Source of the DNA: Novakomyces olei
Lineage: Eukaryota
Length of the DNA: 64,000 nt
Assembly: GCA_016906335.1 (NCBI GenBank)
Contig: JADEYG010000009.1
Coordinates: 1,116,001 to 1,180,000, forward strand
Reading direction: 5' to 3'
The translations under genes and the position numbers were made by a program. Below, piece after piece: positions 5,511-64,000 of the stretch. Under the pieces are notes generated by a model. It did not search any database. It worked only from the letters and a program-made list of their open reading frames with translations, and was not told the origin of the DNA. The first letter of the stretch is position 1; every line of letters starts with the position of its first letter.

Positions 5511-7213
5511 CTATGAAACAGCCGCCGTATCTGCATCATTGCCGGCGCCAGCGCCTTTGGGTCCGTTTTCCTCCTCTGCAGATACTTTTGTTACGTTATT
5601 ATCGCTCTCACCAATTACTGGACCTCCGTGTTCTTCCTCCGCTTTTGGCTGAGATTCAGCCACAGGCTCAGGAGGAGGTGCAGCTGCGGATCCACCAGAC
5701 ACTGATCTTTGTGATGAAGCAGCATTTAGCCGTTCATCTAGTGCCTTCAACGCGAGTGCTCTACAAAGATTAGAATACTTTAAATGTAATTTTTATAAAA
5801 AATAGCAAAATAAATAAACAGAGGTAAAATATTGCGCAAAGCAATTTAAATGATAAGCATACCTCCTTCGTTCGGCCTCCTGTCTTGGAATGTTCCGACC
5901 ACCATGGCCTCTAATATCAACACCATCAAGAGACGCTCCTCTGAACGGAGAAGAGCTTGATGCCGAGGAGACAAATGTCGATCTTTGCGGTATAAAATGT
6001 AACTTTACAGCAGCTAGGTAAGCGGGAGTAGCGATCAAGCGATTGACTGGAGCCTGAATACGCTCAGGGAAAAACGACGCAAAAGAAAATGCCTCGCTAG
6101 GGTCTCCATGAAGAACAGTACCGGTAGCAGATAATCCGATGCCTGACGCAATATCGGGAATTGTGGCCTTGTAAAAACGTAGATAAGCCCACGAGATAAA
6201 TGTACCGTATAAACAGAGCAAAAAGCCCACAAAAGAGTGGCTTAATAAGATGTAGAAAGCATTGAGAATTAGAAACAGTGCCGGTAATCGCTAGAGTTAG
6301 ATATATGTACGTAAAAATATGATTTATATGTGTGTACATGTATATGGATGCTGTTGTTATATAAATCTTACCTTGACTTTGAATTCGAAAAACCGAAAGA
6401 GCGACAGCGTATACTCTGGACCCAATTGCTTAAAGGCAACGACGAATCCGCTTTGTAAAGCAATCGTTCCAAAGATAGGCTCATTCCTACAAACTTGTTA
6501 GAACCAAAGTGAGGTTGAGGAAAAGACATACACAAAGGAAACGTTTCCCGACAGCACGTAAAGCACTACAGATGTGGAAAACACTGCAGCTGTAGGGAGG
6601 ACGGCAACAACAGCAAAGAATTTGAGGTATTCGCGAGAAGACCACGCACGCTCGAGGAATCGTCCACCGTAGAGTATAGTAACGAGAGTAACGAGTAGCT
6701 ACAATGTAAGTATAGCGCTGAATAAACAAACAAAAACACAAAGTAAATAAAAAATATATATAATTAAATGTAAAATAAAATAAAATAAATATAAAATAAA
6801 TATAAAATAAATATAAAATAAATATAAAATAAATATAAAATAAATATAAAATAAATTTTATAAAATAAATATAAAATAAATATAAAATAAATATAAAATA
6901 GATATAAACATAAAATATAGTAAATGATTAGTTGCGAACCGTTCGCCAATTGAACTCGAGCATTGTACTGACAAACACATACCGTCCACAAGTTACTATC
7001 AACAAGAGCCGCAGTCAAAAACGTCCAAACCATCAAGTACGATTCCGAGGGAACCATAACAATATAAGAGAGCAAAGCACTCGAACTTCCGGATCCCAGA
7101 ATCCAGTTGCGGTAGCGCAGAAAGTTGAATACAATAGTAAGAAACAAAACCGTCAAGAGACAAACTCGAGTTGCCGGCGGTAAGTTGTACACGGCCAGCG
7201 CTGGAGACGCCAT
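5511..7213 (-). CDS. DUF1751/TMEM115-like rhomboid-superfamily membrane protein, 5 exons
   Basis: WTFLTAALV, YGGRFLERAWSSREY, SWAYLRFY, GDPSEAFSFASFFP and AERRR|ALALKALDERL motifs; introns resolved in frame. Confidence 0.85.
6770..6900. repeat. AT-only minisatellite (TAAAA/TAAATA units) inside intron 1 of the DUF1751 gene
   Basis: Directly visible. Confidence 0.9.
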
Positions 7214-19195: not shown

Positions 19196-21799
<2,604 letters not shown>

Positions 21800-53263: not shown

Positions 53264-53373
53264 TGTAGAAATTTAATTTGGCTTGTTGTAGAGAATAGTG
53301 TTGTATCTCCTTTTAGCTGTAGCCAGCCTTCCTGTTCTTTTTCTGTGACGTCCAAGCTTGACATATTCCTATA
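53264..53373 (-). mobile_element. internally deleted solo LTR (110 bp), family A, TSD AGTTG
   Basis: Reverse complement of both ends of the 53803-54208 LTR; AGTTG at 53259-53263 and 53374-53378. Confidence 0.9.
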
Positions 53374-53872
53374 AGTTGCTGCGCTTTATTTTCTAAGCCT
53401 ACTAAGCTTCATTCGCGAGCAAAATTGACATAAGAGGGGTTAGAGTGGAATTTCTCTTGCTGAAGATCAGATAGGCATGGTTCTTGAGAAACCCCGATAG
53501 ATTTTAATTTAACAGACGCCTTCTGCGCGCTTGAGTCTAGAGAAGCTTCTCTCTAATTTTCAAGGTTAAGAGCGCTTTTCTCCTTTAGACTTGTGGAATA
53601 TTTATTTTTTTTTGATTATTCCAATGAAGTTGTGTACATGTTTGGGCAAACGATATTTTATACATGAGTTTATTTCGACCTTAATTATTTCATTCTTTTT
53701 GGCAATACAGCGGTTTTGTGTCTACTGACTCTAATAAAATGACCTCTTTTTTTATATACATATTTAAACATAGTTGTATATATTCACAATGACAAGTATA
53801 ATTATAGGAATATGTCAAGCTTGGACGTCACAGAAAAAGAACAGCAAGGCTGGCTACAGAAAAGAGGAGGAA

Positions 53873-54058
53873 TGGCTGGAGTGGCTGGAGTGGCTGGAGT
53901 GGCTGGAGTGGCTGGAGTGGCTGGAGTGGCTGGAGTGGCTGGAGTGGCTGGAGTGGCTGGAGTGGCTGGAGTGGCTGGAGTGGCTGGAGTGGCTGGAGTG
54001 GCTGGAGTGGCTGGAGTGGCTGGAGTGGCTGGAGTGGCTGGAGTGGCTGGAGTGGCTG
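53873..54058. repeat. 9-bp minisatellite TGGCTGGAG, about 20 copies, inside the family A LTR
   Basis: Directly visible perfect array. Confidence 0.97.
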
Positions 54059-55241
54059 AAACTGAGTACAAAGAGGCTTGCGCTACCAAAGTGTAACTCG
54101 GTGGCTGGAACCAAAGAAACTATATAGTACAGCGTCAGTAGACTTAGAAAAGTAGCTAAAAGGAGATACAACACTATTCTTTACAACAAGCCAAATTAAA
54201 TTTCTACAGATTAAGAGTCTGAGTTCAGTCAATATGAGCAAACTCGGGATATTACTCAAGCTCCACGGGCAGGCAGACCTGCCGTACCTCGCAATTCCGC
54301 GATTGGGGAATTTAATCGAGTTTCCCCAATGGAAACAGAAATTGTCGGAGGTGTTGACCACGTACGGGCTTCAGCACGTCATGCCCGATTACAAGGGAGA
54401 AAAAGCTGCGACCGAGGATGTGGCTTACCAGTCAACGATGGCCATACTTCTGCTTACACTAAAGGAAGCTATCTCTGTGCCAGTACTTGACGGACGACCT
54501 GTGCCAAAAGGCGCCAAATCCGGAAATTCTGTTGGCAAATGTCAGCAACGCATTTCAGGAACGAAAATACCGCCTTTTAGTCCAAGTCAGTAGCGAGCTG
54601 TATGGACTAAAAGCACAGAGCTTGGGGGAGGTGGCAGGACTCCACACAAAATTTAATAGTCTGGTCACCAGCTTGGGAGAGCTGCGAAACGACCTTTGTC
54701 AAGAGGAAGTTCTCCAAATTTATCTCAACATGATACGAAATTGCAACTCTTTGAATTCGGAAATTCGTGTTTGGGAACGAGCAAAAAAAGTCCTTCTGAA
54801 GGATATACAAGAAATTGTCGTTGAAGCTACGCAAAGCCACGGCGAAAGCGCCGAAACTGCGCTGACAACGTTCCGCGCCTCTACTTGTCATTACTGCAAA
54901 AAAAGAGGCCATACAGAGGAACGCTGCAGACTTAAAAATAATACTTGTTTTGTCTGTGGAGCAAAGGGCCATTTTAAAAATAATTGTCCTAAAGCAACAA
55001 AACAGATGAATAGTAATAAACTCGGTGAACAATTTTATCAGGATGCCTTTATTAATGCCGTTACACCAAACACCATTAATAAAAATTGGATTCTCGATTG
55101 TGGTGCGTCGCAACACATGACTTATAATAAAACCGACTCAACCAATTTTAAAAAATACAATAGCCATGAAAATCATTTTGTCATAGCTGCCGGAAAAGAA
55201 AAGTTGAGAGTACTGGGCAGTGGGGATATTTCACTTACGAC

Positions 55242-58200
55242 TGTTGAATCTATAATTTCGAACGTGTTAATTTGAAACGTGTTGTATTCAATTTCGTTAG
55301 CCAACATAGTTCTATCTAGATCTATTTATAGTCTTCTCAATGACAGTCACAATTACCAGGGTAAACTTCATTTTTTTTTTCTAAGTAATCAGCTGCTGCA
55401 CAAGCTTGATATACTTTCCTATACTCCCTCTCAAGCTTGTAATGATTCAATTCTAGAGTCCCCTTTCACCAGTTTTTGTCGCAAATGTATAAAAATCTTT
55501 TTACACAAAGGCTTTGTTAAAATATCCGCAAGCTGTTCTTTTGTAGATATATAATCAACAATTACTGTGCCGTTTTCCGTTAAATTGCGCAAAAACATAT
55601 ATCGTACATCAAGGTGCTTTAGTCGTCTCATTGGGCTTGTTTTATGCGCAATACAAATTGCGCTTTTGTTGTCGGAGCAAACACGAATTGGAGACTCAAT
55701 TTTTAAAAGCTCCTTGGCCAGGTTGTAGAGACCTAATGTATGCACAATCGCCGTACAAGCACTTATATATTCAGCCTCGCATGTCGATAACGCAACAACT
55801 TTTTGTTTTGTTGACATCCAATGAATTAATGAATTACCCAGAAACAATGCCATTCCCGAAGTGGATTTCCTTTCGTCTCTATCACTTGCGTAGTCGGCAT
55901 CGCAATAAACTTTCATGACTGGTTCAACCGAATTGCTTTGATATTCCAGTCCCTTGTCTTTTGTATCCCTTAAATAAGCCGTGATACATTGAACCAGTTC
56001 GAGACATTCATCTGTAGGCTTTTCTTGATATCTTGCTGCGTGGGATACAGCGAAGGATATATCTGGCCGAGTGCATCTGCTTATCCAAAGTAGCATGCCA
56101 ATCCATTTGCGGTACTTTTCATTGTTTATAGGTTTCCCATTCAATTCCACGTAATTCCTTATGGGAATTCGTTTTTTAGGCAAGTCGTAGCAATCGAATT
56201 CTTTAATTATTTTTGTAATTGCTGCCTTCTGACTTATTTTCAAATTTCCAATTTTCTGATCATAACAAAATTCCATCCCAAGAAATTGATGAATCTCACC
56301 CAAATCTTTGACCTTAAATGCTCTTTGTAATTTTTCCTTTGTTCGTTTCATTTCATTTAAATTCTCGCCCATAATAATAATGTCATCAACATAAATAAGC
56401 AAAAATAAATTACCTTGGGAGCTGTATAGTATACAGTCTTCGACCTTCGATTCCATAAATCCAATTTCCATTAACACTGTAAAAAGCTTTTTGTACCAAC
56501 ATCTAGGGGCCTGTTTTAAACCGTAGAGCGATCTTTTCAATTTGCATACTTTTCCTGTTCCGTCGTCGAATCCTTCTGGTTGTTTCATATAAACGCATTC
56601 TTCTAATTCGCCGTTTAAGAATGCAGTTGTAACATCCATCTGATGAATATTCCATTTTTGCATTGCTCCATAAGCCAGTAAAGTGCGAAATGATTCTAAG
56701 GACATGGTCGGGGCGTATGTCGCTTGATAATCTACTCCCTCACGCTGACCAAATCCCTTTGCAACCAATCGTGCTCGGTAACGTCCAACTTCCCCATCAA
56801 CATTTGCTTTAGCTTTAAAGACCCATCGATTTCCAATGACATTAGCTCCCTCTGGCGCGCTCACTAGTACCCAAGCGTCATTTTCTTTCATTGCGTCCAA
56901 TTCTGTCTTCATCGCTAATTCCCATTCTGATGCTTGCACGCTTTCTCTAGCTTGTTTCGTATTTGTAGGCTCAATTATACTGTCAATACTAATATGCGCA
57001 TGATCGTATGGTCCTGGCAAACTACGTATTCGGGTTGAGCGTCTTTTACCATCGTCGGTCCATTTAGTTCCAAGCTCCTCCGTTTGCAATTCGGATAATT
57101 CAGAATTGTCATTAATTTTTGGACTCATATTTTCTAGAGTATCTTCAAAACTTTGTTCCGATGCGTCCGAATAATTTTCAATTTCCTCGTCAATTTGCTC
57201 GTCAATTTGCTCGTCATTTTGCTCGTCATTTTGCTCGTTATTTTCCTCGTTATTTTCCTCGTTATTTTCAATTTGTATACCCTGCTGAAATTCAGACACA
57301 TTTGACTGTTGCAAATTATTGACAGTAGAAATATCATTTCCAAGTGCTGGAATAAATGTTGTATTTTCAGAGCTGTTGATGGATTTATTTTCCACAGTTT
57401 CATAAAATTCTGTTTCTTTAAATATTACATCCCTTGAAACAACAATTTTGTTCCTTGACGTATTCCAAAGTCGATAAGCTTTAGCATTGGATTGATACCC
57501 TACAAAGATATGGGGTTCACTTCTAGCATCCAATTTTCTTATATCGTTATGTTTGTTCAGGACATATGCAATGCATCCAAACACTCTCAAATGATCTAAT
57601 AACGGAGGCTTTCCAAATATCATCTCATATGGTGTTTTATTAATTATTCTGCTTGGGCTCCGATTTTTCAAATACACACAGGCATTGACCGCCTCATCCC
57701 ATAGCTTTTGTGGAGTCTTCCTTTGAATCATTGTAGACCTGACCCTGTCAAGAATTGTTCTATTCGCCCTTTCTGCAACTCCATTTTGCTGCGGCGTATA
57801 AGGTGCGGATTTTTCATGAACAATGCCATTTTCGTTTGTAAACTTTTCGAAAGATTTATTAATATACTCGCCTCCATTGTCACTCCGAAATCTTTTGACC
57901 TTAATTCCAAATTGCGTGTAAATCATTTTGATCAAATTCTGAAAACAATCATTCACTTCGAATTTATAATTGATTGTGTTGACAAAAGTGTACCCACTGT
58001 TATCATCAATAAAAGTGACAAAATAACGATGACCAAGCGCTGATACTGGAAACGGCCCACAAACATCACTGTGCAATAATTCAAATTTGTCGGTTGCTCT
58101 CATTCGTCCTTCTGGGAATGGCTGGCGCGCCATTTTTCCTTCAATGCAACTTTCACAACCAACATTTAAGTTGCTTCTATTAACTTCGTGTTGTATTTTC

Positions 58201-59750
58201 CCAGCACCAAGTCCTTTGGCGAGTTCAACCATATATCTCTCATTTAAATGCATTAATCGTTCATGCCAAAGATTTTGTCTGTCCTTTTTTGTAGCATATA
58301 GTGCAAGCATCTTTTTTTTAGGGGCATGGTCAACAGTTTTTGTATCAACAGGATACAAATTATTTTCTTTATCAAAGTCTCCAAGCTTTCTTCCAGTTGT
58401 GTCATAAAGTACAGCTTTGCCTTCTGTGAAATAAACCGATATATGCTCATTATCGAGTGCGCCAAGTGAGATTAAATTGAAACCAAGCGATGGTACCCAC
58501 AAGACATTTTTCAATAAAACTTGGTTATCCTCAGACAAATTTAAACTTATATTTCCGTATCCCAATGCTCTTAATTTTTCTTTTCCCGCAGCAAGTACAA
58601 AATGATGTTCATCACTATTATAACGTTTTAGATTGGTGAAGGCCAATTTATTGTCCGTCATGTGCTGCGATGCTCCACAGTCAAGAATCCATTTTGTGCT
58701 GATACTTTTGGAAATACTTGAAGACTTTATAAATGCCACACGATAGTAATGTTCAGACAATTTATTACTATCAGTTCTTCTCAAATTTTTGTCACAGTCC
58801 GCTCTGAAATGACCTTTCTCACCACAAATAAAACAGCTGCGATTTTTGAATCTGCAGTTAGTTTCGGTATGACCCTTTTTCTTGCAATATTTGCATATCG
58901 CAACACGAGAGGCTGCCAACGCCATTTCCGAGCTTAAGTTATCTCCATTATCTCCTAGCATTGCTTCAAGTACAATTTCTTGTACTTCTTTGAGATTAAT
59001 ATTCTTCGAACGCTCCCAGATACGTATCTCACTTTTGAGCGACTCGCAACCTTTTATCATATTTAGGTATATTTGACAAACTTCTTCAGCATGTAGGTCC
59101 TTTCGCAACTCGCGTAAACTCAGGATGAGACTGTTAAATCGTGTATTCAGTTCCGCAATTTGTCCCAAACCTTGTGTATGCAGTCCATACAGTTCGCCTG
59201 TAACTTGAACGATTAAGCGGTATCTTCTATCCAAGAAGACGGCATCAATGCTGGAGAGCAGTGATTTCGGTGTCAATGCCTTTTGACAAACATCGTCAAG
59301 GACTGGAACCGAAATTATCTCCTTAAGAGTAAGGAGAAGCATAGCCGACGTAGATTTGTAGCCGATATCGTCGGTAAAATTCCCTTCAACTGAGGCATTT
59401 GGCATCACGTGTGCCAGTCCGTAAGTCTCAAGAATTCCGCCCAATTTCGATTTCCACTGAGGATACTCGATCAAGTTAGTCAACCTTGGAATAACCAGGA
59501 ACGGCAAATCTCCATTTCCATGAGGTTTGAAAACCACTCCCGTGCTGCTCATGTTTCAGACTCTTAATCTGTTGAATCTATAATTTCGAACGTGTTAATT
59601 TGAAACGTGTTGTATTCAATTTCGTTAGCCAACATAGTTCTATCTAGATCTATTTATAGTCTTCTCAATGACAGTCACAATTACCAGGGTAAACTTCATT
59701 TTTTTTTCTAAGTAATCAGCTGCTGCACAAGCTTGATATACTTTCCTATA
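55242..59750 (-). mobile_element. intact Ty1/copia (Ty5-like) LTR retrotransposon, family B: 5' LTR 59750-59570, PBS 59569-59556, PPT ~55432-55424, 3' LTR 55423-55242, TSD ACGAC
   Basis: LTRs are identical except one T in a homopolymer; ACGAC at 55237-55241 and 59751-59755. Confidence 0.97.
55431..59552 (-). CDS. single-ORF Gag-Pol polyprotein (Gag/2xCCHC-PR-IN-RT-RNase H), 1373 aa
   Basis: WILDCGA, HHCC, HSDVCGP/SDNGGEY/NGVAERANR, HQMDVTTAFLNG, YVDD and YCDADYA...LADILTK in copia domain order. Confidence 0.97.
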   Translation of the reverse strand: MSSTGVVFKPHGNGDLPFLVIPRLTNLIEYPQWKSKLGGILETYGLAHVMPNASVEGNFTDDIGYKSTSAMLLLTLKEIISVPVLDDVCQKALTPKSLLSSIDAVFLDRRYRLIVQVTGELYGLHTQGLGQIAELNTRFNSLILSLRELRKDLHAEEVCQIYLNMIKGCESLKSEIRIWERSKNINLKEVQEIVLEAMLGDNGDNLSSEMALAASRVAICKYCKKKGHTETNCRFKNRSCFICGEKGHFRADCDKNLRRTDSNKLSEHYYRVAFIKSSSISKSISTKWILDCGASQHMTDNKLAFTNLKRYNSDEHHFVLAAGKEKLRALGYGNISLNLSEDNQVLLKNVLWVPSLGFNLISLGALDNEHISVYFTEGKAVLYDTTGRKLGDFDKENNLYPVDTKTVDHAPKKKMLALYATKKDRQNLWHERLMHLNERYMVELAKGLGAGKIQHEVNRSNLNVGCESCIEGKMARQPFPEGRMRATDKFELLHSDVCGPFPVSALGHRYFVTFIDDNSGYTFVNTINYKFEVNDCFQNLIKMIYTQFGIKVKRFRSDNGGEYINKSFEKFTNENGIVHEKSAPYTPQQNGVAERANRTILDRVRSTMIQRKTPQKLWDEAVNACVYLKNRSPSRIINKTPYEMIFGKPPLLDHLRVFGCIAYVLNKHNDIRKLDARSEPHIFVGYQSNAKAYRLWNTSRNKIVVSRDVIFKETEFYETVENKSINSSENTTFIPALGNDISTVNNLQQSNVSEFQQGIQIENNEENNEENNEQNDEQNDEQIDEQIDEEIENYSDASEQSFEDTLENMSPKINDNSELSELQTEELGTKWTDDGKRRSTRIRSLPGPYDHAHISIDSIIEPTNTKQARESVQASEWELAMKTELDAMKENDAWVLVSAPEGANVIGNRWVFKAKANVDGEVGRYRARLVAKGFGQREGVDYQATYAPTMSLESFRTLLAYGAMQKWNIHQMDVTTAFLNGELEECVYMKQPEGFDDGTGKVCKLKRSLYGLKQAPRCWYKKLFTVLMEIGFMESKVEDCILYSSQGNLFLLIYVDDIIIMGENLNEMKRTKEKLQRAFKVKDLGEIHQFLGMEFCYDQKIGNLKISQKAAITKIIKEFDCYDLPKKRIPIRNYVELNGKPINNEKYRKWIGMLLWISRCTRPDISFAVSHAARYQEKPTDECLELVQCITAYLRDTKDKGLEYQSNSVEPVMKVYCDADYASDRDERKSTSGMALFLGNSLIHWMSTKQKVVALSTCEAEYISACTAIVHTLGLYNLAKELLKIESPIRVCSDNKSAICIAHKTSPMRRLKHLDVRYMFLRNLTENGTVIVDYISTKEQLADILTKPLCKKIFIHLRQKLVKGDSRIESLQA

Positions 59751-60352
59751 ACGACGTCCCAAAACAAACAATTTATTTTGAAAAATGTGCTGTGGGTTCC
59801 CCAACTGGGGTACAATTTAATTTCACTTGGCGCATTAGACACAGAATTAATTTCTGTCACATTTGATAATGGAAAAGCTACACTGTTTAAGACACAGAAT
59901 AAAGAAGTGCTTGAAACATTTGAGAAAGAAAATAACCTTTATCCCCTTCGGACAAAACAAATTGGTTATATTGCAGAAAACAAAGCTCTTGCGATAAGTG
60001 TTCCTGAGAAACAAAAATTATGGCACGACCGCTTAATGCACTTGAACGAAAATTATATGATAAAACTCGCTAAAGGCCTTGGAGCAGGAAAAATACAACA
60101 AGACCTTGACAAGACAAATATAAAAGTTAAATGCGAAAGTTGTATCAAAGGAAAAATGGCACGCCAACCATTTCCAGAAGGACGCCTAAGAGCAGAAACA
60201 AAGTTTGAATTACTGCACAGTGATGTATGTGGACCATTTCCAGTTTCAGCTTCAGGGAAATGTTACTTTGTTACGTTGATTGATGATTTAACCGGATATA
60301 CATTTTTATTCACAATCGCCAATAAATTTGACGTTAACAATTGCATACAAAA

Positions 60353-60473
60353 TATTTATAGACATTTTCCCCACTGTTGGTTTTGTGTGTTCATTAGAGT
60401 TGCTTTGAAATGTGTCAAGAGTAGAAAACAAAATTGAGCAGGTTTGCAGTCAATCAGAAAACACACTACAACA
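60353..60473. mobile_element. truncated LTR, family C-like
   Basis: Aligns by eye with 60660-60802 (TATTTATA...TTTCCCC...CAAGAGT...AAAATTGAG.AGGTT...CAATCAGAAAACAC..TACAACA). Confidence 0.7.
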
Positions 60474-60599
60474 AATCCACCTGAAAAGGCAAATTGCTTT
60501 ATAACAGATGGGTTTAAAAAATCAAGACCAAAACAGAAGACACCATCGACAGATACAGATCATGATTGGTTGCAAGAGGTTTTAGTCAACAGGAAGGGA
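60474..60599 (+). pseudogene. degenerate copia RT N-terminal fragment
   Basis: PPEKAN...RWV.KIKTKTEDTIDRYRS*LVARGFSQQEG with frameshift and stop. Confidence 0.75.
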
Positions 60600-60802
60600 T
60601 GTAGTTGTGAGCAATTTATGATTGTTAATATTGTTAATTAATTTGTTGCTCGACTATTTATTTATATACGTTTCCCCCTCTGTGGCTTAGATGTATTTAT
60701 CAGAGTATTTTGAGAATGTACCAAGAGTAGTTTGGGAATGTGCCAAGAGTGCGATAAGAAAATTGAGTAGGTTGGCACCCAATCAGAAAACACGTTACAA
60801 CA
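60600..60802. mobile_element. LTR, family C (TGTAG...CAACA), no matching TSD
   Basis: TG...CA ends, interrupts RT coding sequence on both sides; flanks AGGGA and CATAG differ. Confidence 0.7.
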
Positions 60803-63615
60803 CATAGTTGGTGCGTATGTATCGACAAAGTCAATTCCTTCCCGTTGACTAAAGCCTCGCGCAACCAATCGTGCTCTGTATCTTTCAATGGTTCCGTCTG
60901 TCTTGGTCTTAATTTTATAAACCTGTTATAACTGTGGAAATTACTCACTGTTATAACTTTTAGATTAATTAAATCTACCCTTAAACTATGGAAAACCTTG
61001 TCCTTTTATAGACTTCAAGGCTCAGCTCTTATCTTCGTAATTTGCCAAGAGATAGGATCAAGACTTTCCTATCAATTAGTAATCAGATAGGATCAGAAGT
61101 AACCGATCAATTAGTAATCACCTTATCATTGATAAGATACAGATACCCGATCAGTGGCTTGATTTAATGATTAGTAATTAAATATTCCTCCAAATCGGTT
61201 AAATTCCGTATTTGGAGTGAATTAATTTAATTTAATTATGTCATTTCTAATTTTATTTTTACTATCTACACTATGGCCTAACAAAACCCGTCTGTTATCA
61301 ACCACATTTGCTTTTTTAGGAGGAACTACCAGTTCCCAGGTGTTATTTTCTTTCATTGCATTTAATTCTTCTTTCATTGCATTTTCCCATTCGGACGCAT
61401 TTATGCTCAATCTTGCTTTTTCGGGCGTGAGTGGTTCAGACATTTCTGGTACAGTGTTAAGTGCGTGCAAATTATGCACGCCATCATATATTCCTGGTTT
61501 GTTTCGAATTCGCGTAGACCGTCTGCCACTTTCTGTAGTGGTACCAAGCGGTTCTTCAACGGTTTGCACATCTGGCTCAATTTCATTGATATTATTATTA
61601 TTTGACACGACTGTTTCTTCATCGCAGCTGGCGAATTCTTCGGGTACGCTTTCATCATAAATGTCAGAAACGCTGGAGCTCTGTGTTGAATCCAATGTTT
61701 CTGTAGGAGGAATTTCGTTATTGTCGCTGTTAAATTTGTTTTCATTTTCGTTTTCGTTATCAGTATGATTTTCGATAAATCCATCATCACGAACAGTATT
61801 ATGTTCATTGTATTTCAAATTTCGTGACGGTAATAAAATCCCTCCACTAGACAACAAACTCCCTCTTTTATCATCATGTGTGGAATATTGTCTTAATTCT
61901 TCCAATGAGAAATATTCATTTTCAAAGAATTTAACATCCCTGGAGATAATCATTTTGTTAGTCACAGGATTTCATAATCGAAAGAATTTTGCATTCGACT
62001 GATAACCGACCATAGCATATTTTTCTCCCCTGACAATTAATTTGTTTGACCTGTCGGGCTTGGGTTTCGAATAAACATTTCAACCAAAAACTCTCAACTG
62101 ATTCACTTGTGGTACTTTTCCGTAAACCATCTCGTAAGGAGTGCGTCCGTGAATTCGCGTTGGAACACGATTTTTCATGTAAACACTTGTGCGAACTGCT
62201 TCAGGCCAAAGGCATTCTGGAAGATTACTGCCGATAAGAGCGGTTCTGGCCTTGTCTAAAATTGTTCTGTTTGCGCGTTCAGCAACACCGTTTTGCTGAG
62301 GTGTATGCGGAACAGTTGTCTCAGCATTAATGCCTTTGTCTGTATAAAATTGTTTGAGCTCGTTATTGACAAATTCACCGCCATTGTCAGTTCGAATAAT
62401 TTTTACTCGCTTGTTAAATTATGTTTCAATTAAATTGACAACCGTTTTCACGAGTTGACACACTTCGCTTTTATTTATTATTTAGAATAAAATATACGAA
62501 CGTATAACCCGAGTAATTGTAGATAAGAGTCAAGAAATACCGCAATTTCTTTTGTGAACTCACGCGAACTTCACACACATCGCTGTGAATTCGTTCGAAT
62601 AAACTTGTTGTGCGGTCCTGTCGTTTTTCAAATTGTAGACGCGTAAATTTTCCCTGTGCGCATTTGTGACATGAAAATGTCGCCGGAATTTTAAGGTCAT
62701 TCAATTTTCCATTCGCACATCCGTTAATTAATTCTGATAAATAATTCAGGTTGACATGCATAAACCGATAATGCCATTGTTCAGCACTGTTTTCTGGTGT
62801 TGTAATTAAGGCACTTTGATAATCATTATTTTTATTGTCTCTTACAACCGTGTAAAGACCTCGTTTAATTTTTCCAGTCGTAATAATACTTCCGTTTGCT
62901 CTATCAATTATTTTAACTGAATCTTCGGCGGTAAAACAGACATAAATTTTTTCTCGACCTAGTTTTCTTATCGATAGCAAATTAAATTCAAGCTCAGGAA
63001 CCCACAGTGTTTCTTTCAAGTCAAGAACGATATTTGGCCCCAGTTGAATACTCACCGTTCCAAATGCTTTAGCAAGCGTTGTATCTCCAGCAGCGGTTTT
63101 TATATTAATGTTGCATGGATGCAGAGTACCTTTAAACATTGCTTTATTAAATGTCATGTGTGCTGTTGCTCCGCTGTCTAGTATCCATTCATTGGATTTA
63201 ATATTATCGATATTCATAAGAAGCGCACTAAAGTATGGTTGAACAATATTATTATTATTAAACTCCTTTTTGTTGCATGTTGCAACACGATGACTAGGCT
63301 TCCCACATCTGAGGCATTTATTCTGTTTTTTCCAGCACACGTCTTCCGTATGTCCAGATTTATTACAGAACTTGCAATTCATATTGGACGTCGCAACGTT
63401 TGCAGTTGTCTTAACACATTTTCGCGCAAATGACCGGACCCAAAATATTGCTTCTGCCAAACTCATCTTTATACATTTCTCTGGGGAACGTTGAGAGACA
63501 AAAGACTCGATTCCAGCACAATTCTCAATCGCATTAAAATATGCTGTGACAAAAAACTTTTCCAATTTTCCATAGTCGCGTGACATGGAATCAAACGTAA
63601 GGGGAAGTTGGTCGG
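60803..63615 (-). mobile_element. degenerate Ty1/copia element (gag-PR-IN-RT start) with stops and frameshifts
   Basis: CKFC...C, CLRC...C, WILDSGATAHM, IHSDVC, TDNGGEF, QQNGVAER, NNTWELV and YRARLVARGFSQ motifs. Confidence 0.9.
60924..61283. mobile_element. solo LTR (360 bp, TGTTA...TAACA), fourth LTR family, TSD AAACC
   Basis: AAACC at 60919-60923 and 61284-61288. Removing it restores RT frame ..DNRRVYKIKTK.. Confidence 0.88.
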
Positions 63616-64000
63616 TGTTGAATCTATAATTTCGAACGTGTTAATTTGAAACGTGTTGTATTCAATTTCGTTGGCCAACATAGTTCTATCTAGATCTATT
63701 TATAGTCTTCTCAATGACAGTCACAATTACCAGGGTAAACTTCATTTTTTTTCTAAGTAATCAGCTGCTGCACAAGCTTGATATACTTTCCTATACTCCC
63801 TCTCAAGCTTGTAATGATTCAATTCTAGAGTCCCCTTTCACCAGTTTTTGTCGCAAATGTATAAAAATCTTTTTACACAAAGGCTTTGTTAAAATATCCG
63901 CAAGCTGTTCTTTTGTAGATATATAATCAACAATTACTGTGCCGTTTTCCGTTAAATTGCGCAAAACATATATCGTACATCAAGGTGCTTTAGTCGTCTC
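63616..64000 (-). mobile_element. 3' end of a second family B copy: LTR 63616-63795 plus RNase H end, running off the window
   Basis: Nearly identical to 55242-55629; inserted in the gag of the degenerate element; left flank GTCGG. Confidence 0.95.

Follow-up and report, generated by a model that had tools for sequence, protein, structure and literature searches.

Element A, a young and apparently intact Ty1/copia element in the 64-kb stretch of DNA analysed here (the window), carries directly beside its 5′ LTR a 14-base primer-binding site (PBS) that is specifically complementary to the anticodon arm of tRNA-Lys(CUU), and the same 14 bases are conserved at the equivalent position of a sister element, C. 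The best reading of this arrangement is that reverse transcription of these elements is probably primed by a cleaved 5′ part of tRNA-Lys(CUU), in the manner of initiator tRNA-Met for copia and Ty5. For Ty5, priming from an internally cleaved initiator tRNA-Met reportedly goes back to Ke et al. in 1999. In LTR retroelements, the choice of primer marks lineages and is also a respect in which the element depends on its host.

Element A occupies positions 55242–59750 of the window on the minus strand (4509 bp). Its 5′ LTR (59570..59750, minus strand, 181 nt, TATAGG...TTCAACA) and 3′ LTR (55242..55423, minus strand, 182 nt) differ solely by one A in an A-run, an identity of 99.45% over 182 positions. 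A target-site duplication, GTCGT on the minus strand, was read directly on the 5′ side (59751..59755) and has its partner on the 3′ side (55237..55241). The polypurine tract GAGAGGGAG (55424..55432, minus strand), also read directly, adjoins the 3′ LTR on its upstream side and overlaps the stop codon of a single gag-PR-IN-RT-RNase H open reading frame (ORF) that encodes 1373 amino acids (55431..59552, minus strand, with the ATG at 59552). Pfam assigns to this ORF the domains zf-CCHC (residues 239–255), Pol_BBD (288–369), gag_pre-integrs (398–474), rve (490–587), SH3_retrovirus and RVT_2 (891–1131), giving the copia order of zinc knuckle, protease barrel, integrase, reverse transcriptase (RVT_2) and RNase H region. 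The position of integrase ahead of reverse transcriptase in the domain order identifies the element as Ty1/copia (Pseudoviridae), and the direct LTRs, the 5-bp target-site duplication and the polypurine tract before the 3′ LTR are the structural features of the same group. Element A is a recent insertion and is probably active.

The 14-mer GATTAAGAGTCTGA lies at 59569..59556 on the minus strand, directly after the terminal CA of the 5′ LTR, with the start codon three bases beyond it; the plus strand of 59556–59571 reads TCAGACTCTTAATCTG. Three copies of the LTR end fix this boundary. After TTCAACA, whose last A in the 5′ LTR is position 59570, the sequence continues with GATTAAG at the 5′ LTR, with GTCGT at the 3′ LTR and with CCGAC at the 3′ LTR of a second A-family copy (63616..63795, minus strand, its last base at 63616), whose body leaves the window. 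The last base of the LTR is therefore established, the G that follows it is internal and the 14-mer begins at the first internal base. No TGG-type PBS follows the 5′ LTR of element A, and there is no room for another site, because the ATG of the ORF is at 59552.

Element A is part of a nest of copia insertions that extends from 53.2 to 64 kb. It is inserted within element C, which lies on the plus strand and whose body resumes at about 59742. The 5′ LTR of element C (53803..54208, plus strand, 406 nt) contains a (GGAGTGGCT)n array at 53869–54058 and ends in ...TTTCTACA; directly after this end comes a 14-mer identical to that of element A (54209..54222, plus strand), and the gag ATG follows at 54234. 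The ends of the C LTR, TATAGG...TTTCTACA, are fixed by a solo LTR of the C family with its own duplication, CAACT on both sides (53264..53373, minus strand, 110 nt); this solo LTR lacks the tandem array. The nest also includes a third copia lineage, D, on the minus strand (63631..61282, 31–40% identical), which is interrupted by the second A copy.

Across the entire 64 kb, the exact 14-mer occurs twice, at 59569..59556 (minus strand) and at 54209–54222 (plus strand), and both occurrences are the first internal bases after the LTR of a copia element. In a shuffle control with up to two mismatches allowed, the mean number of matches was 0.61 and at least two matches arose in 13 of 100 shuffles, a count that ignores position and admits mismatches, whereas both real matches are exact and stand at an equivalent functional position. 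The proteins of elements A and C are 50–63% identical. When the 5′ ends of the two elements are aligned, ACA together with the 14-mer forms the longest invariant run (17 columns). Upstream of the 14-mer, 35 of 78 aligned U5 positions are identical and the LTRs are otherwise unrelated; the bases immediately after the 14-mer differ. The PBS has thus been kept as a unit of 14 bases, since the upstream U5 has mostly diverged and the bases just beyond the site are not shared. Because A and C represent two sister families that share a genome, their agreement counts as one or two observations rather than many.

The likely identity of the complementary RNA emerges from tRNA genes elsewhere. The 16-mer TCAGACTCTTAATCTG is found in 35 stretches of viral contigs, and in 14 of these it falls within tRNA-Lys(ctt) genes called by ARAGORN, at the anticodon arm. 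As CTT is the anticodon in those genes, the complement of the 14-mer covers tRNA positions 27–40, which take in the 5′ stem strand of the anticodon arm, all seven loop bases and the two opening bases of the 3′ strand. Among the 14 matches, those in L013, L019 and L020 are eukaryote-like tRNAs from giant-virus contigs. To gauge specificity, the 14-mer was compared with all 218 tRNAs called in the viral loci, 17 of them tRNA-Lys(ctt) and 201 others. All 14 bases are present in 14 of the 17 tRNA-Lys(ctt) genes, which had been selected by the pattern, and the three unselected genes share 13, 8 and 7 bases with it. The 201 other tRNAs have at most 8 bases in common with the 14-mer (a maximum reached by one tRNA-Gln), and tRNA-Lys(ttt) at most 6. 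Because the 14 exact matches were picked by the pattern itself, they establish that such anticodon arms exist rather than that the host possesses one. Two sequences outside the pattern selection also contain the core GACTCTTAATC, one a tRNA fragment from human and the other the tRNA-Lys attB site of a Mycobacterium. The stem bases beyond this 11-base core vary among taxa, and the human and Mycobacterium sequences both differ there.

A sequence-only reading of this DNA had placed a minus-strand PBS without the usual TGG at 59556–59571 and had taken its complement for the anticodon arm of tRNA-Lys(CUU). The direct reading and the LTR ends from three copies bear out the first statement, and the second agrees both with the 14 of 35 matches that lie in tRNA-Lys(ctt) genes and with the ceiling of 8 shared bases in the other 201 tRNAs. 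In sequence, the site has the features of half-tRNA priming: it stands next to the 5′ LTR and complements an anticodon stem-loop, reaching its end within the 3′ stem strand. Taken together, the LTR end and the PBS supply 16 bases of a 17-base anticodon hairpin.

ARAGORN and Rfam found no tRNA gene, and hence no host tRNA-Lys, in the 64-kb window. When the viral tRNA-Lys(ctt) gene L013:8430-8504 was compared with sequencing runs that contain host DNA, run X1 returned 0 records and runs X2 and X3 returned five short pieces each, all less than 90% alike, an outcome that speaks neither for nor against a matching arm in the host. From the PBS itself and the youth of the insertion, the host tRNA-Lys(CUU) would be expected to carry the stem TCAGA/TCTGA. 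We infer this host arm and, purely by analogy, a cleavage of the tRNA, a nuclease responsible for it and the exact 3′ end of the primer, all of which stay conditional in the scheme that follows.

In the proposed mechanism, cytoplasmic tRNA-Lys(CUU) would enter the particle and its anticodon arm would anneal to the 14-mer. Since a primer requires a free 3′-OH opposite the first base of the PBS, cleavage of the tRNA would have to occur after position 40, within the 3′ strand of the anticodon stem. Were the terminal CA of the LTR to pair as well, as the hairpin-completing TG on the plus strand allows, the cut would instead fall after position 42. The resulting 5′ fragment would then prime minus-strand strong-stop synthesis into the short U5-R. 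Complementarity between the two 7-base loops is complete, and a loop–loop (kissing) contact could therefore begin the annealing or capture the primer. We also considered whether the PBS ends at position 27 owing to a blocking modification at position 26, and dropped this idea; the eukaryote-like sequences have A there.

A fungal precedent for the site is in print. Donnart et al. 2017 (BMC Genomics 18:410, PMC5445492), in the passages that deal with the PBS, give an 11-mer from an internal region of tRNA-Lys as the PBS of the fungal FunCo1 Copia elements, a group of 39 families detected in 270 fungal species. According to the same passages, its hosts are almost all Pezizomycotina, with two further copies in Lipomyces starkeyi, and the group was not found in 57 other ascomycete and 245 basidiomycete genomes (PMC5445492). 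The FunCo1 11-mer corresponds to bases 2–12, the core, of the 14-mer in both A and C, a likeness drawn from the PBS core alone; the site described here is longer, at 14 nt, with one extra base towards the LTR and two at the opposite end. The FunCo1 passages of the survey make no mention of a half-tRNA and speak of a classical PBS (PMC5445492). In the main texts of the literature searched, neither the 14-mer nor its complement is printed, in DNA or RNA letters, and Donnart et al. 2017 (PMC5445492) is alone in connecting a Copia PBS with an internal region of tRNA-Lys. The sequence-only reading had presented the primer as novel while granting that the novelty would be lost if fungal families with this PBS had already been described; on that very clause the claim fails, as the PBS core of FunCo1, in the published passages, is such a case (PMC5445492).

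Half-tRNA priming itself is well precedented. A review of Ty3 states, in its passages on primers, that copia primes with a half-tRNA and that the starting point for Ty5 is an initiator tRNA-Met cut internally (PMC5371799), and the relevant passages of another review describe Candida elements whose PBSs match internal regions of tRNA-Arg(UCU) and tRNA-iMet (PMC4139406). With these passages the sequence-only reading agrees in what it had said of copia and Ty5, namely that they prime from a 5′ half of initiator tRNA-Met, and of Tca2, to which it had assigned an internal tRNA-Arg(UCU) site. Element A resembles Drosophila copia and yeast Ty5 in that its PBS adjoins the LTR, lacks TGG and complements an anticodon stem-loop, so that internal cleavage of the tRNA would have to create the 3′ end of the primer; it differs in the tRNA, initiator tRNA-Met there and tRNA-Lys(CUU) here, and in that its primer is predicted from sequence. 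The Candida tRNA-Arg(UCU) element, as the review passages present it, is likewise an ascomycete copia element with a PBS that matches an internal region of an elongator tRNA, although the tRNA is a different one. Among plant copia lineages, the primers listed by Neumann et al. 2019 (PMC6317226) include 1/2tRNA-Ile for Bianca and 1/2tRNA-Met for Osser, Bryco and Gymco-II. These plant lineages share with the elements described here the use of lineage-specific half-molecule tRNA primers within Ty1/copia; their hosts, however, are plants, and 1/2tRNA-Lys is not among the primers reported in the relevant passages (PMC6317226).

A fungal Copia with an internal tRNA-Lys PBS was thus already known, and our results open no new mechanism. 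To the Copia elements with a tRNA-Lys(CUU)-arm PBS they add one that is young and apparently intact and whose host belongs to an ascomycete lineage that has been little sampled, with the site mapped to positions 27–40. In print, the tRNA-Lys half mode amounts to one sentence in one survey (Donnart et al. 2017, PMC5445492), and a biochemical demonstration, to go by the passages of that survey, has never been reported. For a first biochemical test of such priming by half of tRNA-Lys, element A would lend itself well.

Among the alternatives to priming by a tRNA-Lys(CUU) half cleaved in the particle, we regard as unlikely that the primer is a different RNA with a fitting 3′ end, whether a host tRNA-Lys fragment already produced by a stress nuclease, as opposed to one cleaved in the particle, or a tRNA-Lys-like or other small RNA. 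The sequence is silent on how and where the 3′ end of the primer arises, which leaves space for such a source. Known stress-induced tRNA halves, however, end in the loop and not at stem position 40, which counts against a stress fragment. We also found no other candidate RNA, and tRNA-Lys(ttt) has at most 6 bases in common with the site. On the other side, ends made by the host have a precedent, in that the Ty3 review, in its passage on Ty5, ascribes the Ty5 primer end to cleavage by host RNase P (PMC5371799).

Slightly less probable still is a main role of the conserved sequence as an RNA hairpin, in dimerisation, packaging or some other mode of initiation, with the likeness to tRNA-Lys secondary. 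The LTR end and PBS do fold into a hairpin in both element A (−5.2 kcal/mol) and element C (−4.1 kcal/mol), with a stem of CAGA and UCUG around a 7-nt loop that draws on the last CA of the LTR, and a conserved hairpin stands at the PBS position of fungal GalEa elements in the account of Donnart et al. 2017 (PMC5445492). As a non-classical, hairpin-capable sequence at the PBS position, the site indeed resembles both the GalEa Conserved Hairpin Site, as that account presents it, and Tf1. Such a fold, however, is bound to arise in any sequence complementary to an anticodon hairpin. In its loop and closing pairs the site corresponds exactly to tRNA-Lys(CUU), and nothing comparable occurs in the 201 other tRNAs. 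GalEa elements have a 9-bp palindrome, of which the final A of the LTR forms part, whereas the sequence here is not palindromic, has no complement in the LTR and matches a tRNA instead; moreover, it is as a classical PBS, not a hairpin, that the FunCo1 passages of the survey treat the site matching tRNA-Lys (PMC5445492). Self-priming of the Tf1 type, in which the 5′ end of the transcript would fold back onto the site, was considered because the site lacks TGG and adjoins the LTR, and is very improbable: no supporting point was found, the PBS region and the LTR share no complementary stretch longer than 6 nt, a length that 528 of 1000 shuffles also reach, and a second copy of the complement is absent from the window at up to two mismatches.

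Neither word-indexed searches nor an exhaustive HMMER search, which covered 1.84 billion cluster representatives, turned up a public protein more than 43% identical to the element A polyprotein. The few named top matches are plant or generic copia proteins, and the cluster names of the best 10 matches are uninformative, with one from a plant and one labelled ‘transposase InsO’. Exact copies of six window proteins were absent from the protein collection. A polyprotein scan of metagenomes yielded 10 distant copia loci (24–37% identity), all 10 of which lack the 11-mer ATTAAGAGTCT. No copia was found among the 35 viral-contig loci with the 16-mer, nor among 31 prokaryote-genome loci with the 17-mer, four of which are tRNA-Lys(ctt) genes. 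Searches of metagenomes, viral contigs and prokaryote genomes thus recovered no element with this PBS beyond the window.

What is new here is the divergence of the polyprotein, at 43% identity or less, and the position of the host in a tree of CDC48. It is conceivable, though we hold it only tentatively, that A and C belong to an undescribed deep Copia lineage of an ascomycete outside Pezizomycotina and Saccharomycotina, one that shares half-tRNA-Lys(CUU) priming with FunCo1. If that were true, Lys-half priming would either go back to the ancestor of a pan-ascomycete Copia group or have been gained on two occasions, and would stand as a major primer class, predicted from sequence, beside 1/2 iMet, 1/2 Arg and 1/2 Ile. 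That the host is an ascomycete is indicated by an eisosome protein. In the CDC48 tree, a single-gene tree of 35 rows, the host and one 93%-identical protein form a long branch of their own, which lies outside the Saccharomycotina clade (100/100) and the Pezizomycotina clade (100/100) and falls in an unresolved group with Schizosaccharomyces, Saitoella, Pneumocystis and non-ascomycete rows. This provisionally places the host outside both Pezizomycotina and Saccharomycotina and, if the placement holds, a Copia lineage with a Lys-arm PBS exists outside the reported range of FunCo1.

The end of the window is occupied by a nest of copia elements (53264-64000) that comprises at least four insertions from three lineages. 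An intact minus-strand element (A, 55242-59750) lies within a sister-family element on the plus strand (C), the tail of a second A-family copy lies within a minus-strand element of the third lineage (D, 63631..61282), and one solo LTR of the C family (53264-53373, minus strand) completes the nest. GC content falls to 36-39% across this region, and the rest of the window is gene-bearing.

In families A and C alike, the LTRs, including the solo LTR, start with TATAGG (59745-59750 and 55418-55423 in A, 53803-53808 in the C 5′ LTR and 53368-53373 in the solo LTR), and thus with TA rather than the canonical TG, and close with the usual CA. Directly inside the 5′ LTRs of A and C is a 14-nt primer-binding site. 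The complement of this site together with the terminal CA of the LTR is identical to the anticodon arm of eukaryote-like tRNA-Lys(ctt) genes on giant-virus-type contigs (L013:8430-8504, L019:2481-2555 and L020:11004-11078); each of these genes belongs to a small cluster of tRNA genes, Asn-Leu-Lys-Arg(-Ile).

Within element C, the 5′ LTR carries about 21 copies of the 9-bp unit GGAGTGGCT (53869-54058). This array is absent from the 110-nt solo LTR of the same family, indicating that it represents an expansion within an LTR. In the A ORF, a low-complexity acidic Asn/Glu/Gln-rich stretch starting NNEENNEENNEQNDEQ (57134-57403, residues ~717-806) is placed between integrase and reverse transcriptase; when metagenomes were scanned, it was also a source of spurious pattern hits.

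Compared with its homologues, the host CDC48 ORF (19196-21532, minus strand) lacks about 40 residues at its start, suggesting a 5′ intron. The nearest protein is 93% identical, and a 35-row tree places the host sequence outside both Saccharomycotina and Pezizomycotina. In the same tree, a row labelled as a basidiomycete, ‘Cerrena_BASID’ (P0125), clusters with Candida albicans (96/93); this record is probably mislabelled or contaminated. Another tandem array in the window, with an 11-base period, comprises 12 overlapping copies of 64-75% identity (6711-6936).
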